Positions 2,924 through 60,387 are shown, numbered from the whole stretch's first letter. The stretch is DNA of 63,763 bases, filler included, from Folioceros fuciformis (GCA_049999805.1; 5 parts of 5 records of this genome joined end to end with filler, not necessarily neighbours in it); one strand, 5' to 3'. A program made the numbers and translations. The notes: a model not told the origin generated them from the sequence alone.

Positions 2924-2931
2924 TGCTACTG

Positions 2932-6145: not shown

Positions 6146-6499
6146 TTGGCCCTAGTATCCTATCATGGTTGGTTTGGCCCTAGTATCCTATCATGGTTTA
6201 TCTCTCGATGTCCTTATCATGGTTTATCTAATAGAGGATGGTTTTTTTTTGGGATGGGACCATACCCTCTAGAGGATGGCCTCTTTACGGTAGATGATTT
6301 TTCATCTTATTTTTGTAAACTAAATAAGAAACTCATTTTTAAGAAGAGACAATGGTTCTTGAGAGAGATTTGCGAGCATGGACACTTCGCCATGGGATGG
6401 GAAAAAGAGATGGGACGTGGCAGGGAGCGGGCGGCATTTTGAGTTGAGAAAAGAAAAGAGAAAAAGTGCTGACTCCGAATTCCAAAATGCCTGTCAATA

Positions 6500-12509: not shown

Positions 12510-12965
12510 TTTGCATAATCGCCAGAGAAAAGTACACGATGCCAGGCCTCCACTGCAACCATCTGCTCTTCCTCTTCACAACTAGAATCTTACGCACGGG
12601 CTGCCATATATTAGACCATTATCTCCTCGAACCTTTGTCTACCTGCCATGGCATGCGTTGTTGAGAATTGGATGAATCGGTGTCCAGGGAAGCTGTAGCA
12701 AAATATATCTCAACTATTCTAGAGTAATTTTACCTCAATTATTCTACGCTGATATTTTTTGGCGATAGAAGGTGAGAGTTTATGAGAAGAAAAGTTGCTA
12801 TGGGATGTAGATCGAGTGGGGGGCAGGTGATGGAGGGTGGGACTTATGACAATGAGTTTTATCACGAGCTACAAGCTGTCAAGTGCTTTCACATAAAATC
12901 CAAGGCTTTCCTCTTGCCTCGTGCATTGTACTAAAGGTACCGCTTCATTACACTGATGCATGTCC
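12510..12965. repeat. Diverged direct repeat of 19560-20015 (degenerate, coding-like, unidentified)
   Basis: Shared blocks such as CTTCCTCTTCACAACTAG, GGGCTGCCA(T/C)AT, CTTATGACAATGA and TCAAGTGCTTTCACAT occur in the same order in both places. Confidence 0.8.
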
Positions 12966-13769
12966 TGGGCTCTAATTGCACTAGTTGATCAAGATCAATG
13001 AATCATTGTGTGATATATTTGAGATCATTGGGGCCTTTTGCTCACGAGGAGGAACAATTTCATGTTGCTTATGTGGTTAACATGGATATTGATAGAGACT
13101 CTTGTCTGCAAGCATATCATCATCAACGCTTTGGGTGGACAACAAAGAGCATAGTAAGATCCACAAGTATACTTTTTGATAGGCCTAGAAAAGTGCTTGC
13201 TCATGGCCTAGAAAAGTGGTTGTTCATAACCCTATGGGTCTCAAGTGAAAGAGTAATTCTCTTCCTTTCCAAAATGGTTGTCATCTCTTAATAGATCATC
13301 GACATTGCTATGCAATGATTGATTGCCAACACCTCAACATGCATATGCAAAAGAGTGCTGGCAAACTTCTCAACATTGTTGTGCAAAAAGTGTTGGCCAA
13401 CTCCTCAACATTATGGTGCAAAGGCAAAGATTGTTGGCCAACTCCTTGACATTGCTATGCAAAGAGTGCTAGCCAAATCCGTATCCATGATGTAATGGTA
13501 ACAAGTAGAGAATTGCTGGCTTCATTGGCTTCATTGGGTTGTAGGTCTTTTTGTTATCTTTGATTATGACATTATGGAGGCAATAGGTAGTGATATTTGT
13601 GGGGGTAGTCCTCCAATTTTGCCTTTATCCCTTATCATGTTTTGCCTCTTCATTTATTTGGTTAGATACGAATTATTATCTCTTCTATCTTTCACTCTTT
13701 AAAAAAAAAAAGGAGGAAGAAAGTTCTTTACACGAAAAGAGATACTACAACTAAAATGGAAAGCTATAT

Positions 13770-21400: not shown

Positions 21401-22325
21401 GGCTGGTTGATGATGATATGCTTGCAAATAGATAACCATATATTTCCCACCTGAATTTCTCACCTTGGATAGCTGGGGCAGGCGACCTAGTGGAGCAAGG
21501 TGCTAGGGATCTTCCAGTTTCCTTAGAGCATCCAGTCTATGGTGGCAGCTTGAGAGTTTGTGTGGGGTTAAAATATGGTACCTAGGGGTACCGCGAGGTC
21601 CACACAAGCCCTCTATGTCGTTGTAGCTCTGGGATTCCATCCCAAGGGAATGATTGTGTTAAACTACACAGGTTAGCTTCTAAAGACAATTAGCACTTAA
21701 AGCTCGACTGACCCACGCACACACGTCCAGTACTCGGACCTTACCAAACCCCTTTACTTCCCCACCGAATGACCCCTCAGCCACCCGGTCGCCCCAGGGG
21801 CTACCTTCCCCTAGCCTACCCTTGGTTGCCCACCGGGCTACCTCTGTCGCCTTTCGGGCGACGGTCGCCTGACGGTCTACCGCTGGGTCCCACTCGCTCT
21901 CTCTCTCTCTCTCTTTCTTAGTTCCCGCTCTCTAGGATTTTCTCTTCCACCGGGTCATTCCTACCCGATTGATTACCTCCCGCCCGCGCATCCTCTTTGG
22001 CGCTTCCCTTCCTTGGTTCACCACAAACCGTCTCACTCACCTCAGAAACAAGCGTACGCACACATGAATAGCAACAATCTGTTAGACGCCTTCCACCCAC
22101 GTGATCTCCCACCTTAGATACGCCCTGGCGGTCTCCATTCAGTTTCTTCACAGTCTCTCCAGTCTCCTCGCGACCAGTCACTCATACACACCACGTCTCG
22201 TGCACCCCACACACATTACACACCTNNNNNNNNNNNNNNNNNNNNNNNNNNNNNNNNNNNNNNNNNNNNTTAATTAATTAANNNNNNNNNNNNNNNNNNN
22301 NNNNNNNNNNNNNNNNNNNNNNNNN

Positions 22326-38299: not shown

Positions 38300-38523
38300 G
38301 CTTGAGCTTTGAAGACAGCAATCTTCAGAGGCTCAATTGTACATGAGACAACCCCCGACACTGCAGCAGTTGTTTTTAGCTTCATTGTTACCCGTTTAGA
38401 CGTTTAGGCAACATTCTCGGTAATGTTTATCATCTCATTCTTTCTATGCTCAGAGTTTATATGCTCCTGTATAAGTTAGTAGCTAGCCTAAGGGTTTAAG
38501 CGTTGCCCGCATTCCAGGCAGCC

Positions 38524-40116
38524 ATGGCGCTCCTAGCTGCAGCTTCGCGAACGGTGGCCTCGGGGGCTCTACGTGCTGCCTTCTTCGAGCAGCAAGGTAG
38601 CAGCTGCTCCAGCAGCAGCAGTAGCTTCGGCGGCGGCGGCTGCAGCTGCAACACGGCGGCGTGGGACAGGACGCGGTGGAGGCGGGCTTGCAGCGTGTCG
38701 CCCGCTGTGCTTTCTCCCCTGGATGTCTCCGCTCGCAGGAAGGCAGCCTTCCCGCTGCGCGACATCCTGGAGGCGCAGCAGTTTGATCGGGCGCTGATGG
38801 AGGAAATATTCGAGGTAGCTCAGGCAATGGAGGACGTGGACAAATTCTCTCCTGACGCCCAGCAACTAAAGGGTTTCCTCATGGCCACCCTGTTCTACGA
38901 ACCTTCCACTCGCACACGGCTGTCTTTCGAATCCGCCATGAAGCGCCTGGGCGGCGAGGTGCTCACCACAGAGAACGCTAGGGAATTCTCGTCCGCGGCG
39001 AAAGGAGAGACATTAGAAGGTGCGAATTCCCCCAGTATTGCCCAGTATGTAATTCTTCGTCTCTTCCTCCTGATCCTAGTGCCATACATCCCGACTTCCG
39101 CTCATGCGGCCATGGATTTCGCCTCGGCGCTCTTAATCGACTGCTTGTCGCGTTTCACAGACACCATCAGGACCGTTGAAGGATATGCGGACATCATAGT
39201 TCTGCGGCACTTCGAGAGTGGGGCGGCGAAGCGGGCAGCCGAGGTTACTGGCATCCCGATCATCAATGCCGGGGACGGGCCAGGGCAGCATCCTACTCAG
39301 GTTGGCTTTTTCTTCGTTTGAGAATTCAGTTCAGAGGGACGTTGAGGTGAGCAGTTTGTTTTTGTTTTTGTTTTTTGTGACTTGGTCTGCAGGCTCTCCT
39401 CGACGTGTACACCATCCAGCGCGAGATTGGGCGTCTGGATGGTATCAAAGTTGGTCTGGTGGGGGATCTGGCCAATGGCCGGACTGTTCGCTCTCTCGCA
39501 TACCTGCTCGCCAAATATAAAAACGTGCGCATCTACTTCGTGGCGCCTGAGGTGGTTGAGATGAAGGTGAGACAGTCCCTTGGCTTTTATCTCTTGCCTC
39601 GCCTCGACTGCCTACGGGATATCGACTGAATTCGGGCTACGTACAGGATGACATCAAGGACTATCTCACTTCCAAAGGGATTCAGTGGGAGGAGTCGGCT
39701 GATTTGATGCAAGTGGCCTCAGAGTGCGATGTTATCTACCAAACCCGGATTCAACGGGAGCGTTTTGGGGACATTGAACTTTACAACAAGGCGAGGGGGA
39801 AGTATATCGTGAATCGGAATGTGATGGGAGTTCTGCCTAAGCATGCTGTGGTTTTGCATCCACTGCCCCGCCTGGACGAGGTGCTTGTCCTGCTTTTGTT
39901 TTGTAATTTTTTTTCTGTTACAGATAACGCGTACGCTTTTTCGTTCGCTTTTGTTCGCAAATTTTCGTTTCTACAGATGCTGCTAATGCTTTCCACTTTT
40001 CGTTCATTCAGATCACTGTCGATGTGGATTCGGATCCTAGAGCAGCATACTTCAGACAAGCCAAGAACGGACTGTTTATTCGGATGGCTTTGTTGAAACT
40101 TTTACTAGATCAATAA
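38524..40116 (+). CDS. PYRB: Aspartate carbamoyltransferase, chloroplastic, 5 exons
   Basis: [74 protein letters not shown]. Confidence 0.97.
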
Positions 40117-41885: not shown

Positions 41886-44800
41886 TCAGCCAGCATATCC
41901 AGAAGACATCATCCCGGGAAGTGACGGCGATTGGCCGTTGAGAATAAAGGCCTGCAGAAGATTCTGTGCTGCGTGAGTCTGTTCTGGTGTTCCTGAAATT
42001 TCAACGACACGGTCCGCAGTTCCCTGCCTTGGATCATGCAGCTTCACTTTCGCACCAGACAGCTGCAGGAGCAGTAATGCTGAGTTTTGGCTAATGCACA
42101 ACAATGCTTTTCTAAACCACCCCTATCATGAAGTTTTTTTCAAACACCCACCCCAGAGCAAACAATGTCTCCGCAGGACACAGTGTATACCTGACGGATA
42201 TTGGCAATGTTACTCCCTCCCTTCCCAATAACTGATCCCACAGCGGTATTTGGTATCACCACTTCAACGGTTGTACCCGCTAGATTTGTTACAAGGCCAC
42301 CAATGGATCTGCCTCCCCTGGATTTTTAAATCAGCTTTTAGCTACTGTAAAGGCTTGACACTAATATAAGTGAAGGGATAGGCAGGGCAGCTGGAAGGCT
42401 TATGGAGCATCTAATAACGAATATCTAAAAGACTGGACTGAGCTAGCATGATATCACACATGCATAAGGCACAGCATGCACACGTAGAGCATGAACAAGA
42501 GTATGAATTTAAAAAAACATACCCTCCATACCCTCCGCCACTTGACTGCATCTGATGCACAAGACCTCCACCAAATGAGGCAAGGTCGCCCAGTCCACCA
42601 CCCTTTCATTCCAAGGGAGCATCAGATAAGTTTACTCTAACCGAAATTTAAGCCGAACCATTCTTTGGACTTGACTTACTTTTACCTCCTCTTGACACAT
42701 GAGGAGCAACACAAAGCAAACAGGCAACAAACAAATACAAGTTATGGAGGCAAGAGAATTACCTGCACACCCCAAGATCCGGGAGGAGAGCCTAGACTGC
42801 CGTATCCAGACGATAACCGTCCTCCTTGTAAGCCTAATCCAGACATAGAGGAGTACATTCCCCCTGGTGATCCAGGCTCATGTCCTACTCCGTAACCTGA
42901 GGGAATATGACCACCAAGACCAAGAGCAGAAAGTGAGGACTGGTAACTACCTCCACCCCCACCTGTATCTCGCTCCAAGAAAAAATTCCTCCTCAACTTA
43001 GATGTTATTTGGACTAAAGCCTCTCGAGCAACATTCAGATCCCCAACAATCTGCAAACAGGAAACGCCAGCATAAATAAGTCCACGCAGCTAGCCCATAA
43101 AAAGTTCAAACATTTTTATTTTCTCTGCCAGTGTAGAGCAGCTGATAGAAATGACAAGCCAGTGTCCCACCTGAACCAGCTCATCTGTTTCCAACGCACA
43201 TCGAGGCAAAGCATCCTTTGGTAGAATCCGAATAGTAGCACGTGTGGCTTTCCGCATCTCCGATATTATACTGCCCCCTTTTCCCAACAAGCAACCAATC
43301 TGGGTCGTGGGGACAAGCAGCCTGGTTGTCGTTGTGCCATCCTTCTCTGCACCGAAATCTGCTGCTCTATTTTGCACCTGCAGGACAGCATCCACCGCTG
43401 GAGATACCACCTCATCTGGAGACTGTTGTAAACAAATATCCTTAGTCAGCTACCTCTTCGAACGTGCCATGATCAGCATCCGCACTAGAAAGCCCTTTGC
43501 ACAACAAGGGATGCTCCAGGAAAGGTTACCTCGTTGGCAGAAACAATAATAACCCGTTCTTCCGTGCCCGGAACGGCATCAGCAATTTTTATTCGGGCAC
43601 CTGTCTCCTCTCTAAGTTGTCTGATAATATTTCCCTTCTTGCCGATGACACTTCCGATTTTGTCGTTGGGCCACAGAATGCGAAAGATGAGCTCGTTGTC
43701 AACTGACGCCTCCTTCACTCCATGCAGAGGACCACCGCCACGGGAAGGAAGGACGGGGCCATTGGGGGACCGAAATTGCCAGCCTCCTCCACCGCCCGCT
43801 CCTAGGCCACCTAACGTGGAGAGCGATGGTCCCAGATGAAATCCCTGGCTCCCGCCATTACCTGGAGCCATGAGAGAATTCACTTGCGACAGGAAATTCC
43901 CTGAAGACAACAAGGAACCCCCCGAAAGCAGCGGGGACGGATGGGACAACATCGATGCTCCTTGAGGCCGTTCTCTTGGGGGATTCTCCTGCAGCCGAGC
44001 TGAGATGGCGTGCAAGGCCTTCTTCACAACAGCCAGGTCACCGTACACCTGCAGCGACATTCCACCTCGTAAGCAACAACAACAACAACAAATCCAGCTG
44101 CACCCTACCCCGCAAAACGAAAATAACTAATTCAAAAACAAGCTTGCAGACCTGGACAAGCTCATCACTTGGCAGAGCGCATGCGGGGAGCTGGTCCCTG
44201 GGCAAAATTCGAATCTGGGCCCCAGTCTCATGCCTCATCTGCTCGATAATTTTGCCGCCCTTCCCAAGGAGACAACCAATCTGGTTGTTAGGCACCAACA
44301 GCCTGGTAGTAAAATGATGCGCCGCATCCTCGTCCTCCACATCCTCCTCGTTGCTCTCCCCGTCCACAATCCGGTCATGCACGCGGTACAAAGCCTCCTG
44401 CGCAGGCGAGACGCCCTCTCTGTCGTCTCCATCCCTGTCCCTGCTGTCTCTGTCCCTCGGCCCCGGCTCTCGTTCCCGGTCACTGTCGTCCCTATCCCCG
44501 TCCCGAGACCTTCCATCTCTGCCCCCGTCCCTATCCTTACCTCGCTCTCGGTACCCCTTCTCAGAGCAGGATATGATAATGACTCGCTCGTCCACTCCAT
44601 GAACCGCGTCCACGATCTTGATCTTCGCTCTAGTCTCCTGCCTCAGCGACTTGATGATGCTCCCCGCCTTTCCGATCACGCTCCCGATCTTGGACCCCGG
44701 GCACAGTATCCGGAAAATAGTGTCCTCCGCCGGCGCCGCCTTAACCGGCGGGCGCTGCTGCTCCACGTAATGCATCCGCCGCTTGTGCCGCCCGTTGCGC

Positions 44801-44889
44801 TCCGGCGGCTCCCGATCGTAGTGCGGGTGCGGCCGTTTGGAGGACCCCGAGTAGACGTGGCCAGAGGAGCCGGAATACGGCGCATCCAT
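41886..44889 (-). CDS. Five-KH-domain RNA-binding protein (HEN4/RCF3-like family), multi-exon
   Basis: GxxG loops IGSVIGKAGSII, IGCLLGKGGKII, IGSVIGKKGNII, IGCLLGKGGSII, VGSVIGKGGSNI; ends VEISGTPEQTHAAQNLLQAFI. Confidence 0.93.
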
Positions 44890-45193
44890 AGCAACAAGAC
44901 TGCGAGATCCTCGGGGCCGCTAACAATCCTGCTGCTCCTGCCACTTGCTGGCCTCTCCTTCCTTCCTTCCTTCCTTTCCTGTCCGAGAAGCCCTTCCTTG
45001 CCTCGGAACCGCAGCAATTCCTTTGCCCTAACAGCCACAGGCTGCGGTCGGGTCCCAAGCTCCAACCCCAGGGGTGTATGGTCTGTCCTGGTGNNNNNNN
45101 NNNNNNNNNNNNNNNNNNNNNNNNNNNNNNNNNNNNNTTAATTAATTAANNNNNNNNNNNNNNNNNNNNNNNNNNNNNNNNNNNNNNNNNNNN

Positions 45194-47078
45194 AAGGTTC
45201 CAATACAGCGGTTGACCTATGATAGCTATGTAGCTAGGCACCGTGCCTATATGGCAAAGGTTGTGCAAGATGTGGAATCGAGGAGCTTTGAAGAAGCTAT
45301 TGGAGACACAAAGTGGGAACATGCCATGGATGAAGAAATGAATGCATTAGATCAGAATGCAACATGGGACCTAGTACAACTACTTGAAGGCAAGAAACCA
45401 ATAGGTTGCAAATGGGTGTACAAGGTCAAACACAATGCAGATGGTAGTGTCAGCAGGTACAAGGCAAGGCTTGTGGCCAAGGGATATGCCCAGACATATG
45501 GAATAGATGTTGAGGAGACGTTCAGTCCAGTTGCCAAAATGGCAACAATTCGAACTGTGATCGCACTAGCGGCATCAAAAGGTTGGGTCCTACATCATAT
45601 GGATGTGAAGAATGCGTTCTTACATGGAGAATTGCTGGAAGGAGTATACATGGACCAGCCACCAAGTTATGAGGATTTGGATCATCCAAATCATGTGTGC
45701 AAGCTAGAAAAAACGTCGTACGGACTGAAGCAAGCCCCGAGGGCTTGGCATGAGCGTCTTGCTCAGCATCTGATTCACATCGGATTCAACATGGTAGATG
45801 CGGATCATTCGTTGTATGTGTGCAGAAGTACAAAAGGACTGGTCTTTGTGATCATTTATGTGGATGATCTAATCATTGGAGGTAATCAGTTGGATCAAGT
45901 GGAGCAGATCAAGGAACTTCTGCAACAAGAGTTCTACATGATGGACCTAGGTGAACTGAAATTCTTCTTGGGCATTGAAATTATACGAACCAACACAGGC
46001 ATTTGGCTGTCACAGCGGAAGTATGCGTTGGATGTACTAACTAAGTATGGTATGGTTGAGTGCAAGCCAATCTCGATTCCTTTGGATCAAAATCTGAAGC
46101 TCAGTGCTCATGATGGTGAAGCACTTGAAGATCCAACAGTGTACAAGAAGATTGTGGGTAGCTTGATATATCTCACTCTATCTAGACCAGATTTAAACTA
46201 TACAGTGGGACTACAGAGTCAGTTTATGCAGGTGCCAAGAAAGCCGCATTTGGATGCAGTAAGGCAAACGTTGCGCTATGTGAAGGCAACTATGAATCAT
46301 GCTCTCTTTTATGCTGCAGATTCAGACATAAACTTGTGTGGGTACACAGATGCAGATTGGGTAGGCAGTGTTATGGATCGTAGATCTATAAGTGGATTCA
46401 TATTTTCACTTGGGAGTGCAGCAATAACATGGAGTAGCAAGAAGCAGCCTACAGTGGCTTTGTCTAGTACAGAAGCTGAATACAGAGCCGCAGCAATAGC
46501 AGCGTGTGAAGTGACTTGGATTTGTAAGTTACTCGGAGATTTTGGATTGCAAGTCAACGACAAGGTTGTTATCTACTGTGACAATCTTAGCAGCATACAG
46601 TTGGCGCGAAACCCAGTGTTTCATGCCAGAACGAAACACATTGAGGTACATTATCATTTTTTTCGAGAAAGGATTTTATTTGGAGCTATTGATCTTGTGT
46701 ATATCAACACAGACGAGCAGATAGCCGATATATTTACTAAGCCAATGGGAGCAGAGAAGTTGAAGAAATTCTGAGCTATGTTAGGCGTACAAATGCTATG
46801 TTGAGCTCGAGGGGGAGTGTTCAGTTATCGAGCTCTATATAAGCTAAACTCATGTGGTGTTAGTTATCCTGGTTGGGTTCATACTAAACTAGTTCTAGTT
46901 ATTAATGAACTTAGGATAGTGTAGATTATCCCATATTGAACTTGGAAGTTGTGTAGCCCTAAATGTACTACTTAAATGGAGACCTCGGACCTCCATAGGA
47001 AGACAGTGGTGATGTGTATTGTTTTTGGTTGCGACTACCAATACCACCCTCTCTTCTCTCCTCTCCTACACTTGCACA
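45194..47078 (+). mobile_element. Ty1/copia retrotransposon 3' half: RT-RNase H (45212-46774), PPT (46809-46817), 3' LTR (~46818-47078)
   Basis: YKARLVAKG, MDVKNAFLHG, IYVDD, ADIFTK; GAGGGGGAG directly followed by TGTT. The LTR end at ...GCACA is an estimate. Confidence 0.93.
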
Positions 47079-47117
47079 TAGATTGGAGTCGATCCTATTG
47101 ACACGATAGGCCCTGTC

Positions 47118-47677
47118 TCATGCGTCTTCTAGATCTTGCAGCCACACACCCACCAGGTTAGCCATCGAGGTCATCAACTGGTGTTCCCTCTCTATTACAC
47201 AATGCGGACACGTCACCCCCGTCAGCAGTGTAATGTTGCGCAATTGTGGCTCCTCTGGGGCATTGTTGCGACCAAACTGCGGGCCGTGTATCATGTACTC
47301 GTCACTGTCGCCATCCTCGTTTACCCCGTATGCAAGTGGCCTGATTGCCCCCGATAGTCGCTCTTCCTCTTGGAATGCCTCCGCAGGCACATGTACGTTG
47401 GCGTTCGATTTGTGTATTGCACCCGCCTAATGCGCACCCTCGCTCTCATTGCCATCGCCTCCGGCTGCAATGCGCGCAAAGCAGCGTCTATTTTCCACCT
47501 CGGCACTTTGTACCCCGCGTCCACCAACGCAGCTTTCACCACCCCCACTCCCCAGGTCACTCCGTGCCTTGTGATGGCCACATTCACCAAGATCAACGCC
47601 GCAATTGTTTCCACTGTTAGCAATTGCCCTGCATATGCCCATGTCCACCCTGGACACTTTTCAAGCCATCGCCGCAA
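47118..47677 (-). pseudogene. IS3/integrase-like (IS3EU-type) transposase remnant lacking the catalytic core
   Basis: WGVGVVKAALVDAGYKVPRWKIDAALRALQPEAMAMRARVRIRRVQY..TP.YM matches the G..V...L...G..V.R.R....L..DP....R...I.RR.Y...P motif that precedes the first catalytic Asp. It is joined out of frame to a C-terminal-like piece (PAEAF...YGVNEDG). Confidence 0.6.
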
Positions 47678-49292
47678 CTGTTTCCATTGTTAGCAATTGC
47701 CCTGCATATGCCCCTGTCCACCCTGGACACTTTCAAGCCATCACCGCAGTGTTCTGGGTGTGCAGCCATACTCGGCAGCCAGGTCTCTCAGCGTCCCTCC
47801 AGTGCGCCTTCGTTGCAGCGCCATCTCTTTCAATTCACATAGTGGCACAGGGCAACCCATTCCTCCATCCCTCCCCCCANNNNNNNNNNNNNNNNNNNNN
47901 NNNNNNNNNNNNNNNNNNNNNNNNNNNNNNNNNNNNNNNNNNNNNNNNNNNNNNNNNNNNNNNNNNNNNNNNNNNNNNNCCCCCTGCTCCCCTTCAACGT
48001 CCATCTCCGTCACATCTGAGCTGTTGCCCCCAACGTTTTCCCTACTCTCCTGCTTCTTGCCATCGGGTTCCGTCCTCCCAGCGTCCACCCCAGAGGTTTC
48101 ACCTCTCTACTTGCGCTTGCTCCTGCCTGCACTGCGCCTGCTCCTGTCCCCTCCTACAATCGCTTTGCGCCCGCTCGTCCTCTCCTATGCGACCGTAGTG
48201 CCACTGCTCTTGCTCCCCCGTGCGATCTCACTGCGCTCACAGCCGCCTCCGATCACACTGCGGCAGCCCTGCTGGCCGCGCCCGTTATCACACTGCACCC
48301 CCTACTGGCCGCGCGGGCAAGTTCCGCATACACTCATGCCATGTGTGACACGTTTGGCTTAGTTGAACTGGACAAGCCTCCCCCAACTGCCAGCGACTGC
48401 GTGCAAGACACCCGTCATCGCCTCCACCTCTTAGCCATCCAGTTGTTAAACCGACAGCGCCGCCTAGCATTTATGCCTCCTTCACCTGTTGCCTGTACAC
48501 CTCACGATAGCTCTCACTTCCTGTCGTCACCTCCCATTGCGCTCTCGCCCACCCCCTCTCTTCATCTAAGCAACAATCCTCCCAGCCCCCTCGTCCCCTG
48601 TACCACACCATCTTGTTGGTGCCTACATTTTCGCTTGCAGGTTTGGCAATCAATGGTCGGCTCACCGCACAAGGCAAATCCACCCGTCCTCCCCGCCCAC
48701 ACCGCAGGCCCATTTGTAGCCTCATAATGCCAGCCATGGCGGCATCGCTGGCTGTCCGCCTAGGCCCGGCGACCAAGCATGCTCCCTACCCAGTTGTGCC
48801 CACCAGGCAATCACTCATCCCATGCTAGGCGCCCTTATCGACACCCCAATCGGCCCTGGCAACCTGGTGGGTTCCACGTTCTCGCCCGCAGACCTTAAAG
48901 GCTCTCCGCTCGCCTCCCATGCCCCACATCGCGGGCTCCTCCGAGGTGCCTTGCGAGTGCGCCCAAGCCCAGCGACAGCACGGGCTCACCACCCCAGCCC
49001 GCCTACCTCTCGTCTCCTCGTGCTGGGGGAGCCATGGGCTCGCGCTCCCTTGCCTAGGAAGGCGACATTCCCGTCTACCAACCCGATTCACTGGGAGATA
49101 GCAAGGACTTGGCTCGCCGCATCTAATGTTCTAGGTAGGATTGGGTTGTAATGTTGGTTTTGCATTTGCAGCATGGCTTTAGCGTACTACTCAGCCCACC
49201 CAATTATGACAACTCTCTTAGCCCCACTTCGATGCACAGGGGCACATCCCTCGTCCCTTCCCTTTGGTTACAAACTCTAAGGATCCAACTCA

Positions 49293-52200
49293 CTACGGCA
49301 ACATGTACACTGCATTGTGGGCTATGGCCACCTCAATGCGCTCTTACATGCTGGTGACACACTCGTATTGAGGGAGTAGCAACGTGCTTGTGCACGTCCT
49401 TGAAGTGGGCAGTTGCCCGTCAGCCAAGAGAGGGACCTCCATCACTATCATTGGATCCCCTTCGCTGAAAAAAACTCTATCTCTGATGAATGTGTATAGT
49501 TTGGCCCTTTGTGCAAAGCTCAGCCACCTAATGGTTGTGGCGTACATCTCCCTCGTCTCCAGCGAGCATGCATGGAAAGTAGTCACCCACAAAAACTCTT
49601 CAGGTCTGCACCCACGGACACCAGAGAAGAAAAAACTCACAACCTCCAAGGACATGGTGTCCACAATCAGGAGAAGGGCCCTGGAATTCAAGCTGTGAAG
49701 GACGTGCCTGAAGCCCTCCCCGACCATTCCCCCAATTGGATAGCAGTTGCTGAATAGCAAGTCCTTTGTCAATTTCCCCTGCAGCGCCATGATGTCCACC
49801 CCCAATTGTGACCCTGGTCTCAGGCGTGAAAAGGCGGAACAAAGATGGATCAGCTGCAACAACGAGTGCCACCCCTTCCTGGATGGCTACCAGTTGTCGA
49901 TTGGCAGGGGCCCATGCGGCTGCCTTCAATTGGGCAAACACGCCCATTACCTCAGGGTAGCAAGCCTTCATGTCTGCCTTGAAGGCCTTCCGGAGTACCA
50001 GGGATCCGGGCGCATCCTCCCAAGTACGGTGCACACCATACCGCTGGGTGCCGAGTGCATGCGCGATTGTGGTCATGGGCTTAGACACCTGCACGCCGGT
50101 CACCAACACCATTTATGGCAGGAACCCAAAGAACCCTGACTGCATTGTGCACTGCAAATGTCAACACGAATCCCATACATTGGCATACGATGCCGTGAAC
50201 TTGGCCGTGGTTTGAGGGCACTCACAACTGTCTCGCTCAAGAACGATGTGTGACTCCCTTGCCGAATGTGGTACAGCAACCTGCTTGGGCCATGGTTGTC
50301 TCTTGCATCAAACACGCAGTTCAGGAACTCTGGGTTCAGCCAGAACTGTCGCCACGCCTCGCTTTTGCACCTCCTCGATGGACCTCCCGCGTCTACCGTA
50401 TTTGCTTCAAGCAACCCTCCTCCCCCTTGGCCAGTGATGTACACAACCTTCAGCTCCAGGAACACATCCATGCGCGCCTCATGGCGTCTGAAATGGTCGA
50501 ACAGTGCCCCACACTCCTGACCTACCTCCGCATGTACCCACCACCTCGAGCCCTTGGCTTAGCCACCATCCCCACCACAAACCCTGGTTGTTCGTGGCGG
50601 CACCTACACAGCGGCCAAGTGCACCTCACCTTTAGCGCTGGGGACCGTTGTGCTCTTTTGCGCTGCTGAGCCGCAATTGGCTGGAATGTGTGGTTAGTAA
50701 GAGCATATCTACGCATCGTAGCGTCTGCCGCGTCGCAGGCTTCTTGCGCAGCATGGAGGTTCATTTCCTCAACCTCCCTAAGTGGTAGTGCGACCTACTG
50801 CGCCCTCTCCTCTCACATGCGGATCCACTCGCGGTGGCGGGCTTGCAATCGGAGCAAATCAAAGTGGTCCACCATCTCCTGCAAACTATTTGTGGCCCAG
50901 GCCTCCCATAGGTCTTCAAGCTTTGCTGCTGCCAGGTCCATACTAGGTTCCACTTCGTGCAGTAGTCTTATGACCGTAGCAGCTGGCGACATCCGCTTCG
51001 CAATGAACCCTTGGATGGTGGCGACGTCATATAGTTCGAACCCTGGTATGGTTACTAGCTGGCGGACCAAGGCCCTTCCCACGCCGTCCCCCGCTCCTGT
51101 CCCTTTGTCCAGGATGGTCTGTAGCTCGGCTAGCACAACGGCGTGCTCTGGCTTTGCTTCATCCCCACCTTTCCTCTTCCGCGCCTCATCCACCATATCA
51201 AAAAACACTTTGGCCTCTACCTGAAGAGGCTTCGGCTTCTTTTGGGGCACTACATAGAATGCTGCCTCCTCTGCTTGCTGTAGATAGCGAGTCGCCGCCT
51301 CCCAAGTCGCCACCAGTGCCGCGTACGCCTCGGCGGCAGTTGCAATTGCAAGAAGGCCCATTGCATCCGCAGCACCAGATTAACTCGGTCTTCCTCTCGC
51401 CGGTGCCTAAGGGGAGCTGCCACGTCGGGGTTACCATCAGTCCACAATGTAACAATCGTCGTCTCCCATAGCCGGAGTGCCCCTCATGTTTGGGGAGGAC
51501 ACTGCAGACCCCCCACCACGCATGGTGTGGCCGGCCAAGCCACGCTCCATGGACCCTGTACGCTCGAAGTCGTCTTGCGAGCAATCACCACCCTCTATGT
51601 TTGCCATACCCTCCACCATTATAGCAACATCGACAACCCCTGCCTTTGCTTGATACGCTCTAACCATGTGTTCCGTCATCTGCACGGCTGGATCCCATAC
51701 ATAAAGTAGCATAGTCTGCAGCTGGTGAGAGCTCTGCGAGGTTGTACTACCTGGTGGGAAGATCAACGGGTCGTCAGTGAGCAATGCCGTTGGCGAGCTC
51801 CGAGCGAATACCTGCTGGAATCGCTCAATGAAGCACCCTAGCCCTAGGCTACTCCTATCTAGGTGAAAGGGACAGGCGACAACATCCACTATCTCCGCGG
51901 CCATAGTAAGAGGCTCAAAGTCTGACCCATCGTACGTTGCGCCTACAGGCATCGACGACGGCACATGTAGCTCCACCACAGTGCAGTCGGAGGATGTTAT
52001 TTTCCTGGCTTGTAGGGGCGCGCCCCCATCAGGCGGCTCAATCAAGAATTCTGGGAAGTCGAGGTTCAGAGGAACCATTATCTTCAGCTTCTTGATGTGC
52101 ACGGGCACAAGCGCGCTTCCTACAACCATTGCTCATTGCCTCCTCCTGGGTGATGGGGTGACAATGATGTGATTTCGTCGAAGCGTCATGGGTATGTTGC

Positions 52201-52684
52201 CAGCCGCTGCTCTCATGGTGTCCTCCGGTGGTGGACACGGTGAAATCTGTGGAGTGTGTGCGGGCGAGCGGGGCACTCCCCGTGCTACCACCATGGATGC
52301 ACTCGCAGTAGCTGGTAGGCATCCTTGCAGTGTTGGCCAACTCCGGCATATTGTGCTCACACGCGGCACTTGGAGCGCTGCAGGTCCATGAGGAGTGTAG
52401 GAGATTGTGCTATGAGCAGACGATGCCGGGGTCGCGGGCTCTGCTGCCAGTGTGGTAAGCTGTGGCGTTCGGGATGCATGACATTGGCAATTGGTCGGCG
52501 GGTCATCTCGGAACACATTGTCCTCATCTTCCCCCTCTGTTCTCCAATCAGCGAGGATGGAGTCACCATTGTCGACGGCAAATTTCAGACGCCAGCGGCG
52601 CTCTGGCCTCCCTTCCACGGACATTTTGATGTCGATAGCGGCTATAATTCTCTCTCCCCGGGTGCCCCGTCCTAGAGTGAACAC
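49293..52684 (-). pseudogene. Intronless HECT-domain E3 ubiquitin ligase (HECT ~50470-49293) with a long unknown N-terminal region; several stops and frameshifts
   Basis: In correct order: LKVVY...E..VDAGGPSR; QLVAIQEGV...SLFRLFTPE; VDIMALQ; WLSFAQRAKLYTFI; LPTSRTCTSTLLLPQYE...ERIEVAI (catalytic Cys codon ~49392-49394). Whether the upstream ORFs 50522-52684 belong to the same protein is inferred. Confidence 0.85.
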
Positions 52685-53060
52685 GATTTGTTCGCAGATA
52701 TAGCGGTAGGTGGATATGGAGTGCGTTCATTTGCTGGGCAGGAGGGTGTGAGTATGCCCCACCCTCTCCATACGCCCATCGTGTACGGAGAGCATGGGTT
52801 CACTACATGGGATATCTGCATGCGCCTACCAGCCGCGCTAAATAATATGGGGTTCCGCAGCCCTTAATACTGCCATTAAGAAGTCGGCGCTTTACGCTGC
52901 TGTTCAAATCCCCTCCCTCATCAACTGAGGATGCCAGCCATTCTACTGCGCCACTTCACACTGAAAGTTGCCTGTCACACCAAGCTCGGGGTCAGTGCCA
53001 AATGATTACTTGCAGATGCTGGCATATAATATTACTGCCACCCATAAGNNNNNNNNNNGA

Positions 53061-54310
53061 CTACAATGATGCGAGTTCATATGAATAACACACGTCGATG
53101 GCCAAGGAATACATTTGTGTATAAGGTCGCGATTCTGGATCAATCAGACGCGTTGATGGGCACAGATGACAGGGTCCCACAAGTTCTGAAGATGAGATCC
53201 AACAAGATTGAAGATGACCAAGGACTAGAGATGACAATATGTTCATAAGTTTGGAGCACTGCAAATTGTTGATTGCCAAGGACAACAATGTACTAAAAGT
53301 TCCGGAGGTTGGAATAATGAACATGGTTGATGGCCTATGGGTACAATGGGCAACAAGTTCGCACTATCATATCAATCATGAACATCGATGGCCAAGGACT
53401 ACAATTGTGTATAAGGTCACGAGTTTGGATCAATCTCAAGTGTCGATGGCTAAGGACTATAGCGGAATATAAGTTCACGTGTGTATTTCATTTGCTGGAA
53501 TGCAATGAGAGTGAGGGGGGGGTGCTGAGGGGAGGGTGCTGGGCAGGGACAACGTCCACCAAACAAACTATATAATTTAGTTGTTTGTGAATGAACTACG
53601 GCACCCTAAACCCAACGGGGTCAAAGGAATGTGTAATGTGTTCGAGTTTTTGTTCCATTCATAGTGTACAAGTGCATGTGACAGAGTAGGGTGTGACTAG
53701 GGAACCCAAAAATGGGCGATGGCCATTGTCTTCAAAGACGAACAAGTTTGCAATGTTGGATAAAGCAATAGCATCAAAGGCCAAGGACTCCAATGTACTG
53801 TGAGTTTGAGAGTTAGGACCATAAAAAAGGAGGCGATACCCAACATCCACAACGGAGAAGAATGATGCGAATTGATGTGAATATCAAACGTCAATGGCCA
53901 AGGACAACATTTGTGTATAAGGTCGTGAGTTTGGATCAATGAGAAGCGTCAATGGGCAAGGACTGTAGTACAGTTCACTACAAGTTCTATAGACGAGATG
54001 AATGAAGGTTGAAGATGGCCAAGGACTACAGATGACAACATGTTCACGAGTGTGGAGCACTGCAAATTGATTATTGCGAAGGACATCATTGTACAATAAG
54101 TTCAAGAGTTTGGATTAATGCACCTGGTCGATGGTCTATGGGTACAATGGAACCAAAGTTCGCACGGTCCTATTACTGAAGATCGTCGATGGCCAAGGAC
54201 TACAATTGTCTAGAAGGTCACGAGTTCGGATGAATCTCAATTGTCGATGGCCAAGGACTGTAGCTGAATATAAGTTCGCGAGTGTATACCATTTGTTGTA
54301 AGCAACCCAT
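53061..54310. repeat. Complex repeat: ~440-bp block duplicated ~800 bp apart, built from GATGGCCAAGGACTA-type motifs
   Basis: 53065-53500 parallels 53860-54300; the motif recurs about ten times. Confidence 0.85.
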
Positions 54311-54368
54311 TTGTATACACAATACACCAAGGCATTCTTGCAAGGACCACAGAGAAAGCTATGCTATA

Positions 54369-57300
54369 TAGTTGGAATATAAGGCAGACCACTTGGTTCT
54401 GTATTACGTTGGTTAGCCTAACTAGATATAGTTATAAGTGTATTCAGTTAACTGGCAGGTTAGTCAAAGGGCACACCCCTTCGTAAAACTGCTGCTTAAG
54501 GCCTACCTTTGTATCCACCTAATTAATTTGCTGATAGATCATTTCAATGCATCTGCTTTCGCGTTAGCAATTCTAACTTGGTATTAGAGCTACGGCTCAG
54601 ATGGCCTATGTTTATTATGCCTAGAAGATTGCTTGCCCTAGAATGTCTAGGTAGCATAGTGTCTTGGCTATGAATATGCCTATCAAAAAAAAAAAAAAAT
54701 CTTTTTAGAGAAAAGAATTAAAAAAAAACTTAATGCATGGGGTTGGTCCCCCATCTTGGTATTGATCGGAGACCAGGGTGCTTAACGCTGGCATTTTGAT
54801 AAAAGTTAGGCTACCAGCCCCCTGTCAACTTCCTACAATTACCATTTGCTTTCGTGCAGATATGAACAAACAGAAGCCTGTATGATTCTTCGAAATAAAG
54901 GGAGAGGCATTCTGCCTTTCCCCTGCAACTCGTCGCGCACGACATTCCTGCCCGATCATGCCTAGAAGACGGCGCCAGACGAATCGATCTCCCCGTCTTC
55001 TTCATGCAAGATTGCCTAGGCCAACTCGCCTTGGATCAACTCCGATTCCTGCCCATCGAATCGCACCAAGGACCTGAGCACTTGGCCGTAATCGCACCTG
55101 TGCCTGCACCTGCACACCAAGATCAAGCCCAAAATTCGATTGTCTCAACATGGTTTTTAAGAAGATGATGAAGTCCCATGGGCATCTCGGAGCCTTCTAC
55201 CACTTCCTGAGGAGCAGACAATCAATAATCCAATCCTCTCTAATCCTGTAGGATGAGGATCTGTGAGGATTTGTCCAGATTGTGGTGGATTTGCTTCTGC
55301 CCAGGTGCACGGGCAAATTGGAAAGCCAGGAGCAATTTAGCTTGATTACTGTGCAGGAGGAAGGCATTTTCTGGGGCGCACCAAAGCCATACCACCATCG
55401 CAAGCGGGCAAGGCTGCAGGCACTCAGCGAGGAGCGTGCTGCCGCCATCACGGTCGTGGTGGAGCGCTTTGCCCAGGGTGCTCACTGGTGTGCGTCCCCC
55501 GAATCGGTGCGACACCCACGAAACGACATTTTAACTCGTCGTTTCGTGGAGGTGGGTTCGTTTTATCCACGAACCAGTGTGAATGCGGCTAATTTTGGCA
55601 CAGGTTCTGAACCGGTTCCATTTTGTGCCTCTTCACACTTGTTGGCACCCCTTCATGGTGATTTTCTGGCACAGCAAGGACTTACCTCTATTTTTCCTAT
55701 GGCTTCGTCTAGAGAAGGACTCAACCTTGCACCCGTGAATATCGAGGCCGATCCTTTGCCTCCTCCTCATGTGGTTTGGCAATGCGGGTGCATCCTTACC
55801 GAAAATCCATTGAAGAAATTTTTGCTTTGTCTAGTGACTCTCTTGGTTCAATCGATCCACCAACACGGCCTGCCAGACTTCTTGCTCTCTGGCAATTAGT
55901 GGCCAACGCCAACAAAGATCTTCTCCACTTATCAACCCAAATTCAAGAATTTCAAGGGAGTGCTAGTTCTGAGAGCGTTGAGGTCACTGAGCCTCCTCCT
56001 CCTCTCCTGTAGGTCACTTGAAGCAAGGGAGGAAATAACTGTGGTGGGTGGATTCTAAAGGACGAAGGGTAATACTTTTATTACATAATCTCTTGTGATT
56101 CTTCTTTCACTCGTACTCTCAGCGTTGTGTCATGATGTATCGTCGGCTTACGCTTTGGTTTAAAATCCACAAGAGATGTCAGGCGCTTCCACCTCTGGGT
56201 CGGGGCTTCTTGGGTCTCCAAGGCCAGGATCAAGACCCCCATCACCACCCACACCCCCTCCAGGTGGGCAAACCATTAACCCACCACCTTCTGGTGGCCC
56301 AGCAGGCAACCCACCGCCTCCACCACCAGCTGGTATTCCCCCACTTCAACCTTACTTCAACATCGTAAATATCAATACTGACTTCAAGGAAAAGGATAGA
56401 TTTAACGGTACGAAGTTTGAGGTGTGGTCAACGCGCATGAAGACTGCGCTCAACACTCGGGATCTTCTCCCCATAGTCGAAGGAACCATTCCCAAGCCCT
56501 CTGCTAATCCAGCTGCCATTGATGCTTGGGTTTGTCAAGATTGACAGGCTATGTAGATGTTGATCTCTGGCCTCGACGAGGTTACCTTATATCACACGGA
56601 TGGTACGTCCACATATGAGGAACCTTGGAAGCAAATCACTGATATCTATCAATCCACTAACGTGATGACGCTGGTCACAGTATGCCTGGAATTCTATTCT
56701 TTGCGCATGGGCCCCAATGACAGCGTTGCTCAGCACGTTAGCAAGTTTCAATATTTGCGAGCCCAGCTTGCTTCTCTTGAGACAACCATTACCAAATTTG
56801 AAGCTGTTGTTCAATTATTGGCTAGCCTCCCGGCTAGCTACCATACATTTGTCTCCTCTCAAAACCAAACGGAGAGAAATGCACATCAGGCTGTGCAGTT
56901 GGGTATGGTTCCCAGCATCACTGTGTCCGAGATCGCTGGAGCACTCCTTCAAGAGGAGTCTACCAGGTTCAATATCGGGACCTCCTAACATGGAGGAGAG
57001 AGGGTCATGTTTGTCTCCAAAGGACGGCCATCGCAGCGTAAGAATTCTTATAATAATACCAATCGAAGGAATAACTCCACATGTCCTCCTAAGCCTGCTT
57101 CCTCAACACCCTCTTCGTCGAAGACACCAAAGCAGCAAGGTACGTGCAATTAGTGCCAGTCCCTAGGTCGTTGGGAAAGGGAGTGCGGGAAGAAGCAAGC
57201 TGGTGAGGCCAAACGCGAACCTCGCACGGAAAATACCGTGGCGGTTTCGACTAAGGCCAAGAACCATTCTAACCCTAGCGTTGCTCTCACTGTTTGTCTT

Positions 57301-60287
57301 GTGACCTTTGAGTACAAGAGTTCCTGGCTGATAGATTCTGCCGTGTCAGCGCATATCTGTAGCCATAAGTCGATGTTCGCTACGTATGTAGCGTCTGTTG
57401 ATACTCAGCGTTTCGTACTACTTGGGGATGACTCTGGTCTTTCTATTGCGGGACATGGTTCCGTCACCTTCACTTTGGATGATGGTTCCTTGTTGTTTCT
57501 TACTAATGTGCTACATGTTCCCCAGATGGCCAAGAATCTTATCTCTGTTAGACAGCTCGTGCGGGACGGATCCTTTCACCTCAACTTCGGCCCTGGAGAC
57601 TGTCTGTTATCTCGAACTTCCAACCCCCGGGTTATTGTTGCTAAAGGTCGTCCTCGTCATCATTTATATGTCTTTTCACGCAATCCCGTGCCTTTAGCGG
57701 CTGCCTCTACGGTGGTTTCCTCTCACGGAGACCAGCCTCATAGGAGCTTGCATCTAGGTGCAGCTCTCTTGTGGCATTGCCGACTCGGGCACCTCAACCC
57801 TGCTCGATTGCTTGCCACCTCCCAGCAGGACTTGTATCGCTTCCTAAGCTTCCATCAACACAGCCTCTCTACGAAGCTTGTGTCCTTGCTAAATAGCGAA
57901 GTTCCCCTTATCCTACTCTTCTTGCTCGTCGGTCTTCGGCACCTCTTGATTTGGTCCACGTAGATTTATGTGGTCCTCTACCTGTCTCGTCTTTAGGCGG
58001 AGCAAATCACTTTATGACTGTTGTGGATGACTTTAGTCGATATACATTTGCCTTTCCTATCCGTCTTAAGAGTGACTCGTTTAATGTGTTCTCACCCTTT
58101 GTTACTATGGTTGAGTTACAGATTGGCCATAAACTTCGGTGTATTTGCTTCGACAATGCGGGAGAACTAAACAACCATCAGTTTCGCAAATTCTGCGAAC
58201 AGCGTGGTGTCTTGCGTCAGTTTACAGTGACCTACACTTCTGATCAGAACAGCGTTGCTGAGAAGGCCAATGGCGATTTGATGTCCATGGCTCGTGCCAT
58301 GCTGGCACAATCCCAGCTACCCAAGTCCTTTTGCGCTGAGGCTGTGTCTACTACGGTGTATATTAAGAACAGAGTCCTCACCAAGTCGGTTTCTGGCCGT
58401 ACTCCTTATGAGTGTTGGCATGGGAGCAAGCCTTTAATTTCCCATCTTCGTGTTTTTGGTTGCCCTGCCTATGATCTTGTCCCATCACAGCTTCGCAACA
58501 AGCTTGATGCTCGTGCTCGCAAGTTGGTGTTTGTCAGTTATGGCGATGACCGCAAAGCCTACAAGCTCGTGGACTTGGACTCTCGGATTCCTATCTATGC
58601 CCGCACTGTCACCTTTGATGAAGCTTAGATAGTGCCTGCTCTTGTGACGTCATTTGAGTCTCCTCTTGACGTGCAAGATGGTGCTTCCTCTGGCTCGAGC
58701 ACTCCTCGCTCTTATGGTGATACTTCTATTGATCAATTTGTTCAGCCCTTTACTTTTCCAACTGTTAGTGTTCCTCCTTCTCCTGTGGCTCCTATCCCTC
58801 AAGCAGTTCTGGTGCCGCCTATTGCTGGTCCTGCTCCCCAAGTGCAGCCCGCTCCTAAGTCACCTGTTCCTACTCGAGAGGGGGACATGGAAATAGACCA
58901 CAAGGTAGTATCTGAGGACCCACGTACGGAACAAGGTGATGTTGAACATGTTGATTTTGAACACGTGGTGCCCCATGATATTCCTCAAGCACCTATCACT
59001 CCTCCATCCCCACCTAGGCCCTCAGTTGCTCCTGAGCATAGATATCCTACTCGTGTGCCTCAGCTTAGGCATCTCTGGAAGGAACAACCATTTGATATTG
59101 AGTTTAATCAAGCTAGCTTAACCTATGTTAATTCTTCGGATGCTCTCTATGCCTTAAGTGTTGCTGCTGCAGAGGGAGATCCTTTAACCTTACAGGAGGC
59201 TTACTCGAGGCCCGAGGCAGCCAAATGGAAGCTGGCTATTGATGATGAGTACAACTCATTACTTAAAAACAACACTTGGACTTTGGTTAGTCTACCTAAG
59301 GGTAGGACCACTGTCAAGTGCAAATGGGTTCTTACAACTAAGTTCCAGGAAGTAGAGCCACGAATTCGCTACAAGGCGAGATTAGTAGCTAAGGGATATA
59401 GTCAGAAAGAGGGAGTGGATTATCAAGGCGATAAGGTCTACTCAACCGTTGTCAAGGCTGCATCAGTTAGAATGCTCCTTACTTTATGTGCTGAACTAAA
59501 CTTGGAGATCTCTCAGCTTGATGTGTGTATAGCCTTTCTCTATGGTCATCTTAAGGAAGAGATCTACATGGATCAACCCGAGGATTACGAAGATAAGGCT
59601 TGTCCACAAAAGGTGTGTAAACTTAATCGCTCAATTTATGGCCTTAAGCAAAGCCCACGACTGGGGTATGAGAGAATGGATTCATATCTTAAGAAAATAG
59701 GTTTTGTTCAAAGTGAAGCAGATACTAATATTTATGTGCTACGCAAGGATAGCTCACTTGTTCTAGTTGCACTCTACGTGGATGACTTAGTCATTCCAGG
59801 CAATAACATTGAACTGGTCAACAAGATAAAACCTGACCTCAGCAGGGAATTCGCTATGAAGGACCAGGGAAAGGTTAAGTATATCCTTGGCATGCATGTA
59901 CATAGGGATACCACAGGTGCTATCTATCTTCACCAAGGTAGATATGTAGCCGGTATGCTCAAATGCTTCAACATGGAGAATGCTAGGGCGTCAACCACCC
60001 CAGGTGCGTTTGGAGTCAAGCTCTCATCTGCCTCATGTCCCCAATTTGAAGAAGACAAAAAGGAGATGGAAAACATTCCTTATCACATGGCAGTTGGCAC
60101 CCTCGTGTTCCTGAGTAATCAGACAAGACCCGATATATCCAACACAGTCAACGCTGTTGCCCAGTTCTCTGAAAACCCAGGAAAGGATCACTGGGTTGCT
60201 ATCAAGCGAATTATGAGGTACCTTAAGGGTACACCTAATTATGGCCTTTGCTATATGCCAAGCGGGAAGAAGCATCTGCAGCTAACT
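54369..60287 (+). mobile_element. Ty1/copia retrotransposon 5' part: LTR (~54369-54578), PBS (54579-54590), ~1.6-kb leader, gag-PR-IN-RT (56176-60287), inactivated by stops and frameshifts
   Basis: PBS TGGTATTAGAGC (tRNA-iMet type, one mismatch); gag RFNGTKFEVWSTRM; protease WLIDSAVSAH; GAG-pre-integrase LWHCRLGH; integrase VHVDLCGP..VDDFSRY; RT LYVDD. Confidence 0.95.
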
Positions 60288-60387
60288 NNNNNNNNNNNNN
60301 NNNNNNNNNNNNNNNNNNNNNNNNNNNNNNNTTAATTAATTAANNNNNNNNNNNNNNNNNNNNNNNNNNNNNNNNNNNNNNNNNNNN

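Follow-up and report, generated by a model that had tools for sequence, protein, structure and literature searches.

A decayed locus in Folioceros fuciformis that may be the relic of an IS3EU/GingerRoot-like DNA transposon with a HECT-type ubiquitin ligase gene

Can a DNA transposon carry a ubiquitin ligase gene of its own? The question is raised by a locus of Folioceros fuciformis (GCA_049999805.1), on whose minus strand the remains of a long gene ending in a predicted HECT lobe are followed by the remnant of an IS3-like transposase. The window, meaning the whole 63,763-nt stretch of DNA that was analysed, consists of five assembly pieces joined by N44-TTAATTAATTAA-N44 spacers (2824-2923, 22226-22325, 45094-45193, and 60288-60387); neighbours across a spacer are therefore unlinked. 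The HECT/transposase block lies inside a single piece (45194-60287) with such a spacer on either side, and these bounds agree with a preliminary description of the DNA, which had placed HECT and transposase between the same two spacers with a 100-N gap at 47880-47979. The reading favoured here, to which about an even chance is given, is that the block represents a two-gene DNA transposon of IS3EU/GingerRoot-like kind, now dead and truncated, whose accessory gene was of the HECT type. The parts of the block on which the argument turns are as follows.

49293-52624, minus strand: ORF1, a decayed, intronless open reading frame (ORF) of about 1,110 codons, recognised by its stop codon counts per frame
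49296-49616, minus strand: HECT C-lobe (predicted), with the catalytic Cys codon at about 49400-49398, a motif of the type LPTSxTC...LLLPxY, and Tyr at -4
50325-50402, minus strand: possible remnant of the N-lobe signature motif (16.6 bits, model 107-131; within null range)
47980-49292, minus strand: GC-rich spacer, about 62% GC, that separates ORF1 from the transposase ORF and has no open frame (14, 20, and 17 stops in 436 codons) and no Pfam match
47880-47979: 100-N scaffold gap between the HECT ORF1 side and the transposase ORF
47104-47860, minus strand: transposase remnant, with an ATG at 47860, a helix-turn-helix (HTH) at about 47717-47821, and a linker ending in R-R-x-x-Y...P
47597-47748: 73-bp tandem duplication (2.1 copies, 93% alike) inside the transposase ORF

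Was ORF1 ever a gene? Its first ATG is at 52624, its frame is open from 52726, and its natural stop is a TAG at 49293-49295. From 52726 to 50525, one minus frame contains 7 stops in 734 codons, whereas the other two minus frames contain 32 and 29 and the plus frames 18 to 26; if 25 stops are expected, 7 or fewer have a Poisson probability of 2e-5. The 3' part is more damaged: between 50558 and about 49790 the frame shifts at least three or four times, which divides the sequence into shifted pieces (50558-50103, 50112-49603, and 49886-49347), the last of which is followed by a TAA nonsense codon (49344-49346). A further piece in the third frame (50215-50138) is suggested by frameshift-tolerant alignment. 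No sign of introns is present. ORF1 was thus, as the preliminary description had it, a long intronless minus-strand ORF that has decayed (7 stops in 734 codons versus 18 to 32 in the other five frames), and it was once a real long gene. Its N-terminal portion of about 730 residues matches no Pfam family.

What identifies the end of this gene as a HECT domain? Unrepaired, the last piece of ORF1 has a weak Pfam HECT match (19 bits, E 0.0012), the one match among nine pieces tested. When the TAA at 49344-49346 is read as X, the frame gains 16 codons and runs to the TAG at 49293-49295, and the match to Pfam HECT (PF00632) rises to 31.2 bits against a cut-off of 23.9 (E 2.4e-7, profile 255-301 of 306). 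The HECT profile check that had been proposed for the repaired tail thereby comes out positive for the C-lobe, with the catalytic Cys retained. A phmmer search of the PDB returned 11 chains, all of them HECT C-lobes (HERC6, eight UBE3A entries, UBR5, and HERC5), the best being HERC6 (E 7e-4, query residues 118-197).

Comparators were obtained by scanning metagenome contigs with a short degenerate HECT active-site pattern, which yielded 118 loci; seven of the 37 long comparator ORFs were checked by Pfam, and all seven were HECT (192 to 322 bits). Among the 115 motif matches with a stop, the distance from the His codon to the stop is 35 codons in 61 and 36 codons in 33; in ORF1, with the TAA read through, the stop comes exactly 35 codons past the His position. 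At -4, ORF1 has Tyr, and 36 of the 37 long ORFs have Phe. A profile built from the 37 ORFs matches the last 36 residues of ORF1 at 18.7 bits, with the ORF1 Cys aligned to the catalytic Cys. In tblastn with the same ORFs, the match extends over up to the last 94 residues of one comparator, L090 (a 108-column alignment, E 4e-6), and the reversed control gave nothing comparable. Frameshift-tolerant alignment to the C-lobe profile scores 38.4, versus 13.2 +- 1.9 for 100 shuffles. Because the Pfam, PDB, profile, tblastn, stop-position, and frameshift-tolerant results agree, the HECT C-lobe and its catalytic Cys are judged, on sequence grounds, to be genuine.

Compared with cellular HECT E3 ligases of the E6AP/HERC type (PF00632), the ORF1 lobe shares the catalytic Cys in an LPT-x-x-TC context, a position at the extreme C terminus with the stop 35 codons past the His position, an aromatic residue at -4, and its best matches (HERC6, UBE3A, UBR5, HERC5, and metagenome ORFs with AZUL or RCC1). 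It differs in having Arg for the His before the Cys and T-S for the F-N after it, in a C-lobe that is seemingly about 50 residues longer, in an N-lobe that is unrecognisable, and in the N-terminal portion of about 730 residues that contains no known domain. The comparators that match best belong to two types, E6AP (AZUL plus HECT) and HERC (RCC1 plus HECT); since only about 95 decayed residues are compared, this resemblance is no placement.

Does ORF1 descend from a known HECT gene? Word-index protein searches with the N-terminal 536 residues, the 122-aa transposase piece, and the C-lobe region found no relatives. In phmmer, a 180-aa piece had no match at E <= 0.001 among 1.84 billion representative proteins; this query ended at the TAA and gives only 19 bits with Pfam, so that the test is a weak one. 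Since phmmer found nothing at this threshold and the N-lobe is unrecognisable, the sequence supports the view that ORF1 was not copied recently from a conserved HECT gene of the host. Viral contigs contained no match to the motif pattern, and two protein scans of them revealed no relative. AlphaFold2 predictions from single sequences had mean pLDDT values of 33.4 (a 231-aa ORF1 piece) and 39.2 (the 180-aa C-terminal piece), both unusable.

The second gene lies about 1.4 kb downstream of ORF1, on the same strand and in one GC-rich block. Its frame was read from the ATG at 47860 to 47324 with two stops taken as X. Pfam matches are HTH_23 (E 1.4e-4), HTH_29 (9e-4), HTH_28 (1.3e-3), and the IS3-type HTH_Tnp_1 (0.011). 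The sole NCBIfam match at E <= 10 is the N terminus of an IS3 family transposase (E 2.5e-4, profile 2-48 of 369), at 20.4 bits, far under the whole-protein cut-off of 160 bits. For the uninterrupted 122-aa part (47689-47324), the nearest named ESM-Atlas clusters are short eukaryotic fragments (scores 0.90 to 0.93, recognition 2760), whose domains are PF24764 rva_4 (in 17 to 73% of members) and PF27079 HTH_SpdB_C (12 to 25%). The former is presumably the integrase core of IS3EU-like proteins, and the R-R-x-x-Y...P motif is taken here to be the lead-in to the first catalytic Asp. The taxa of these clusters are Chordata, Mollusca, Porifera, Basidiomycota, and Cnidaria, in agreement with those given for IS3EU/GingerRoot (PMC6839031). 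The region expected to encode the catalytic core (47104-47400) is decayed and is severed by a copia long terminal repeat (LTR) at about 47103. The 73-bp duplication further disrupts this old, dead gene and is itself young. These matches support the identification of the remnant as a predicted IS3-like transposase N terminus with a helix-turn-helix.

Do the two genes belong to one repeated unit? Public read contigs were used here: two of six listed runs (X1 and X2, from one sample and one study) cover the stretch, and contigs at least 80% alike were placed on 45194-60287. Where a contig is identical to the window, its depth is about 9.3 to 9.8. In 504-base bins across 47210-54265, summed depth is 41 to 99 in X1 and 58 to 147 in X2 (13 and 33.5 in the bin with the gap), which is 4 to 10 times that of the identical contigs; the copia elements reach hundreds to thousands. 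Distinct contigs whose letter differs from that of the window were counted at three places (X1 and X2): 8 and 10 at 48196, 4 in each run at 49483, and 2 in each run at 47586-47623. The listed contig pieces diverge from the window by about 4 to 13%. The whole block is a low-copy repeat with several diverged copies, whether dispersed or tandem. One X2 contig, about 13% diverged, spans 47755-47879 and 47980-48104 with 16 letters between them, and the same joint occurs in three contigs of run X3. The two sides of the gap are therefore contiguous in at least one paralogous copy; as 16 and 100 leave the same remainder on division by three, the frame relation across the gap is kept. The preliminary description had made its case hang on HECT and transposase occurring together across the gap in other copies, and in this diverged copy the sides of the gap are indeed joined.

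Three further observations come from the same read data. One or two contigs per run join 48783 to 50086, skipping 1,302 bases with anchors of only 27 to 29 letters, a joint that hints at derivatives of the family that may be internally deleted. Run X3, which shares the sample of X1 and X2, has C>T (521) and G>A (523) changes in large excess over all others, as in a bisulfite or enzymatic methylation library. None of the listed runs that cover the stretch is of RNA; run X4, guessed to be RNA, has just a 36-base piece on the region and says nothing on expression.

What kind of transposon would this be? IS3EU and GingerRoot belong to a single lineage, marked by TA..TA ends and target-site duplications (TSDs) of 6 bp (Kojima and Bao 2023, PMC10045372). 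GingerRoot elements are 3.9 to 12.9 kb long, have terminal inverted repeats (TIRs) of 100 to 150 bp, and within plants are reported only from lycophytes and bryophytes (Cerbin et al. 2019, PMC6839031); a 2022 paper describes them as absent from the angiosperms it analysed (PMC9804982). A genome paper on a rice relative lists 57 "IS3EU" pieces totalling 3.7 kb (PMC10576809), which are taken to be annotation noise.

The likenesses of the present block to this lineage are several. (i) At its N terminus the transposase has a helix-turn-helix like that of IS3 and lacks an HHCC zinc finger. (ii) The first catalytic residue is expected 100 to 300 residues in, and the pre-catalytic motif stands about 130 to 155 residues in here. 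(iii) The block is at least 7 kb long, within the GingerRoot range of 3.9 to 12.9 kb, and its copy number is low to moderate. (iv) The lineage is known from some land plants. On the other side, the DDE/D core of the lineage, related to that of IS3/IS481 (rve / rva_4), is not seen here, nor are a 100-150-bp TIR, TA..TA (or, rarely, TG..CA) ends, or a 6-bp TSD, and GingerRoot has been described with a transposase only, neither HECT nor ubiquitin appearing in the main text of its description (PMC6839031). By its N terminus, size, copy behaviour, and multi-gene layout, the element looks IS3EU/GingerRoot-like. It is not filed as a proven member, because the DDE core was sought without success and the ends are missing.

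Accessory genes have precedents in this lineage. In rust fungi and Tuber, IS3EU families carry TET/JBP dioxygenase and alpha-kinase genes, which are proposed to aid escape from host control (Kojima 2025, PMC12730594). Like the block described here, such TET/JBP-carrying elements have extra coding genes beside the transposase, co-oriented with it in some families; unlike it, their accessory genes are not of the HECT type, their hosts are fungi, and they have defined TIRs (TAYGG..CCRTA) and 6-bp TSDs (PMC12730594). Enzymes of the ubiquitin system are also known from transposons: Ginger1 transposases carry OTU or Ulp1 domains (PMC2836005), and the plant Mutator-like elements (MULEs) Kaonashi/KIU carry Ulp1 (PMC13317346). 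As in the present case, an enzyme acting on ubiquitin or a ubiquitin-like modifier travels with a DNA transposon, whose transposase in Ginger1 is integrase-like. These elements differ in that their enzymes are cysteine proteases that strip the modifier, fused to the transposase in Ginger1, whereas here a separate ORF would encode a predicted E3 ligase that attaches ubiquitin.

Has a HECT-bearing transposon been described before? The preliminary description spoke of HECT-bearing IS3EU elements as reported mainly from animals and fungi, a statement that found no backing: the accessible text of the literature searched contains no IS3EU-HECT pairing, and the fungal accessory genes given there are TET/JBP and alpha-kinase. 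Among the papers listed on HECT, DNA transposons, and transposases, none concerns a HECT-bearing transposon, judged by titles and abstract openings, and HECT goes unmentioned in the accessible text of a 2026 review of gene capture in plants. Within the accessible text of the literature searched, then, there is no report of a transposon-encoded ubiquitin ligase; the precedents are enzymes that remove ubiquitin or SUMO (OTU and Ulp1) and, from fungal elements, erasers of DNA methylation.

If the favoured reading of a two-gene transposon is correct, how might the element have worked and come to its present state? On the minus strand, the layout would run from an upstream repeat array to ORF1, with the HECT lobe at its end, then through the 1.4-kb spacer to ORF2, the transposase. 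The two genes would have been mobilised together, cut and pasted by a DDE transposase. ORF1 would have been a working accessory gene whose predicted product formed a ubiquitin thioester on its Cys, and the target of ubiquitination may have been the element's own transposase or host factors at the site of excision and repair, both of which are guesses. The family presumably spread to several copies, after which this copy would have gained its stops, its frameshifts, and the 73-bp duplication; the copia insertion would have come last and removed the 3' part of the element. That the HECT ligase served the element is something we infer, and the degradation of host silencing factors, suggested earlier, is pure speculation.

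Several results weigh against this reading. To begin with the N-lobe, which in HECT domains measures about 250 residues and binds the E2, the best frameshift-tolerant match, to the signature motif at its start, is in the correct order (about 331 codons before the Cys versus 277 in the profile), but 16.6 bits is a score also attained by 30 of the 320 genomic control windows and by 7 of the 150 shuffles. A second ordered piece (50215-50138, model 150-175) scores 14.1 bits, equalled by 78 of 292 control windows. Two upstream pieces of ORF1 have no HECT match in Pfam or, by phmmer, in the PDB, the profile built here finds nothing in the N-lobe region with filters off, tblastn of that region gives nothing exceeding the reversed control, and an Atlas search with one piece, H1, returns no HECT, its recognition being low (1354) and its clusters unrelated and lipid-binding. 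Affine-gap chaining of the N-lobe pieces to the C-lobe brings no gain; the real sequence and all 576 controls score 38.4, so that chaining is uninformative at those penalties. ORF1 may contain a HECT N-lobe that is very divergent or decayed. Thus, the C-lobe part of the "ordered set of HECT motifs" described earlier (the last 95 to 108 residues or so) stands, whereas the N-lobe matches, though in the correct order, are within the null range.

The transposase, the copies, and the ends raise difficulties of the same kind. All HTH matches fall under the curated cut-offs of their families. Neither Pfam nor NCBIfam detects an integrase or DDE core in any of the three frames of 47104-47439 or in the long frames; what the preliminary description called a transposase remnant therefore keeps its IS3-like HTH N terminus (NCBIfam E 2.5e-4) and lacks a detectable core in 47104-47439. 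No protein search produced a database relative. Summed contig depth is not true copy number, and only 2 distinct contigs lie over the transposase part versus 8 to 10 over the spacer, so that many copies may lack the transposase. The only inverted pair of 20 nt or more in 47104-55800 is 20 nt long, 80% complementary, and internal; no TIR or TSD, which the preliminary description had proposed to define, was found in the window, where one end is lost past the copia insertion and the start of the contig. Finally, the upstream repeat block has a GC content of 0.42, unlike the GC-rich block, to which it is joined only across a 10-N gap.

Could HECT and transposase be neighbours by chance? An IS3-like fragment may have come to lie beside an unrelated HECT repeat or segmentally duplicated pseudogene, the two then being copied together in a larger block. 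This is unlikely. In its favour are the missing TIR, TSD, and DDE core, the 2 distinct contigs on the transposase versus 8 to 10 on the spacer, and the many insertions nested in the region, among them two copias and, at 54370, a high-copy insert. Set against these are the strand and the GC-rich base composition common to both parts, their similar summed depth across all bins, the gap junction common to at least one copy about 13% diverged, and the ORF of 1,110 codons, which was clearly open while the family spread and requires a means of spreading. Passive carriage is quite unlikely. Here a non-autonomous, Pack-type GingerRoot/IS3EU-like element would have captured a piece of a HECT gene, and the ligase would never have been useful to it. 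Gene fragments do occur in 22 of 77 intact GingerRoot elements (PMC6839031), and the C-lobe is the only recognisable part of the domain; those fragments, however, are 84 to 1,654 bp long, contain introns, and are 79 to 98% identical to their parent genes (PMC6839031), whereas ORF1 is about 3.3 kb long and intronless, has its own canonical stop, and finds no match in 1.84 billion representative proteins.

Transposition might also have had no part in the matter. A family of host HECT-like pseudogenes, formed as retrocopies or as tandem or segmental duplicates of a divergent, lineage-specific E3 gene, would explain why ORF1 is intronless and present in several diverged copies. It is distinctly improbable given that no similarity to conserved HECT N-lobes or to any searched protein is detectable, that no A-run follows the stop at 49293, and that the transposase N terminus lies directly downstream on the same strand in an arrangement common to another copy. 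A fragment of an endogenous giant virus or Polinton-like insertion is very far-fetched, although such viruses do have IS-type transposases and highly divergent HECT ligases: neither the motif pattern nor the protein scans revealed a relative in viral contigs, no other viral hallmark turns up in the three minus frames of 47100-55800, and the family exists as several copies about 4 to 13% diverged.

Returning to the two-gene transposon, what remains of the idea of a plant transposon armed with an E3 ligase, as put forward in the preliminary description? The shared strand, the repeated nature of the block, and the linkage across the gap speak for it; the DDE core, the TIR, and an intact copy were looked for and not found, and within the window there is no second copy of the element at the DNA or protein level. 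The wider claim, that a plant lineage harbours IS3EU/GingerRoot-type transposons with their own very divergent HECT-type ubiquitin ligase gene, is possible, if rather doubtful. If true, this would be the first transposon-borne E3 ligase and a complement to the ubiquitin/SUMO proteases of Ginger1, MULE, and Helitron elements; such elements would write, besides erase, ubiquitin marks in transposition or host evasion. If intact members exist, they would allow the use of host protein degradation by a mobile element to be put to the test. As the sole copy here is dead and truncated, its value is in drawing attention to a family whose members deserve to be gathered from the full genome.

Upstream of ORF1, on the far side of a small gap, lies the repeat block:

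53049-53058: 10-N gap between ORF1 and the repeat block
53065-54305: repeat block upstream of ORF1, an approximately 800-bp higher-order unit present twice, each with subunits of about 290 bp

The existence of this block had been correctly described: it contains two copies of about 445 bp that are 81% alike, and a 17-mer occurs in it 10 times, always on the plus strand, versus 0.13 times expected. The array is tandem, because one read contig jumps from 53852 back to 53059, a step of 794. It resembles the subterminal repeats of DNA transposons, a resemblance only. That it belongs with ORF1, as had also been assumed, was not borne out, the join across the 10-N gap being made by scaffolding only.

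The flanks of the block consist of other mobile elements:

45194-47103, plus strand: copia element 1, from reverse transcriptase (RT) to 3' LTR, cut by the contig start (RVT_2 at 45194-46771, E 1.4e-77)
54370-54700: high-copy insert or flank with a look-alike of a primer-binding site (PBS), TGGTATTAGAGC, at about 54579 and an A-run at 54686-54700
56164-60287, plus strand: copia element 2 (DUF4219, Retrotran_gag_2, Pol_BBD, gag_pre-integrs, rve, SH3_retrovirus, and RVT_2), which runs off the contig

Copia elements on both sides had been noted earlier, and the domain searches agree (RVT_2 on the left; gag, Pol_BBD, rve, and RVT_2 on the right, where the domains comprise gag, protease barrel, integrase, and RT). 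The left element truncates the transposase remnant; the position of its LTR end, about 47103, is deduced from TG..CA ends, and its summed read-contig depth is 2,600 to 13,000 versus 67 in the adjoining bin. GC content is 0.50 to 0.62 in the 47-53 kb block, 0.41 to 0.42 in the left copia, and 0.42 to 0.43 at 53-55 kb. At 54370, a high-copy repeat starts sharply, with loose contig ends and a depth of 440 versus 41 to 94 on either side. Its PBS look-alike (TGGTATTAGAGC) resembles the tRNA-Met type, and 54370-54700 may be a short LTR or an insert like a short interspersed element (SINE). Beyond it, at 54770-55777, depth is again that of low-copy sequence, and a 210-aa ORF lies at 55267-55896.

Scans of the window with Rfam and for tRNAs gave no matches. 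The other assembly pieces, unlinked to the block, contain genes of several kinds. An intronless plus-strand ORF at 2926-4317 (GC about 0.67) encodes a plant-type F-box protein (F-box E 4.8e-9), with a KIB1-4 beta-propeller match just under the cut-off (E 2e-5), probably an architecture of angiosperm type, and is overlapped by an antisense ORF at 3328-4416. At 38500-39318 on the plus strand lies a piece of an aspartate carbamoyltransferase gene, two conserved blocks of which match PDB 6ypo (named PYRB; E 2e-57), which we take to be the Arabidopsis PYRB enzyme; about 45 in-frame codons between the two blocks resemble an unspliced short intron. A KH-domain ORF (44041-44919, minus strand; KH_1 E 6.5e-27) lies at the end of the piece preceding the block. 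A third copia-type element occupies 340-2823 on the minus strand of the first piece (RVT_2 E 4e-71, SH3_retrovirus E 6e-24).

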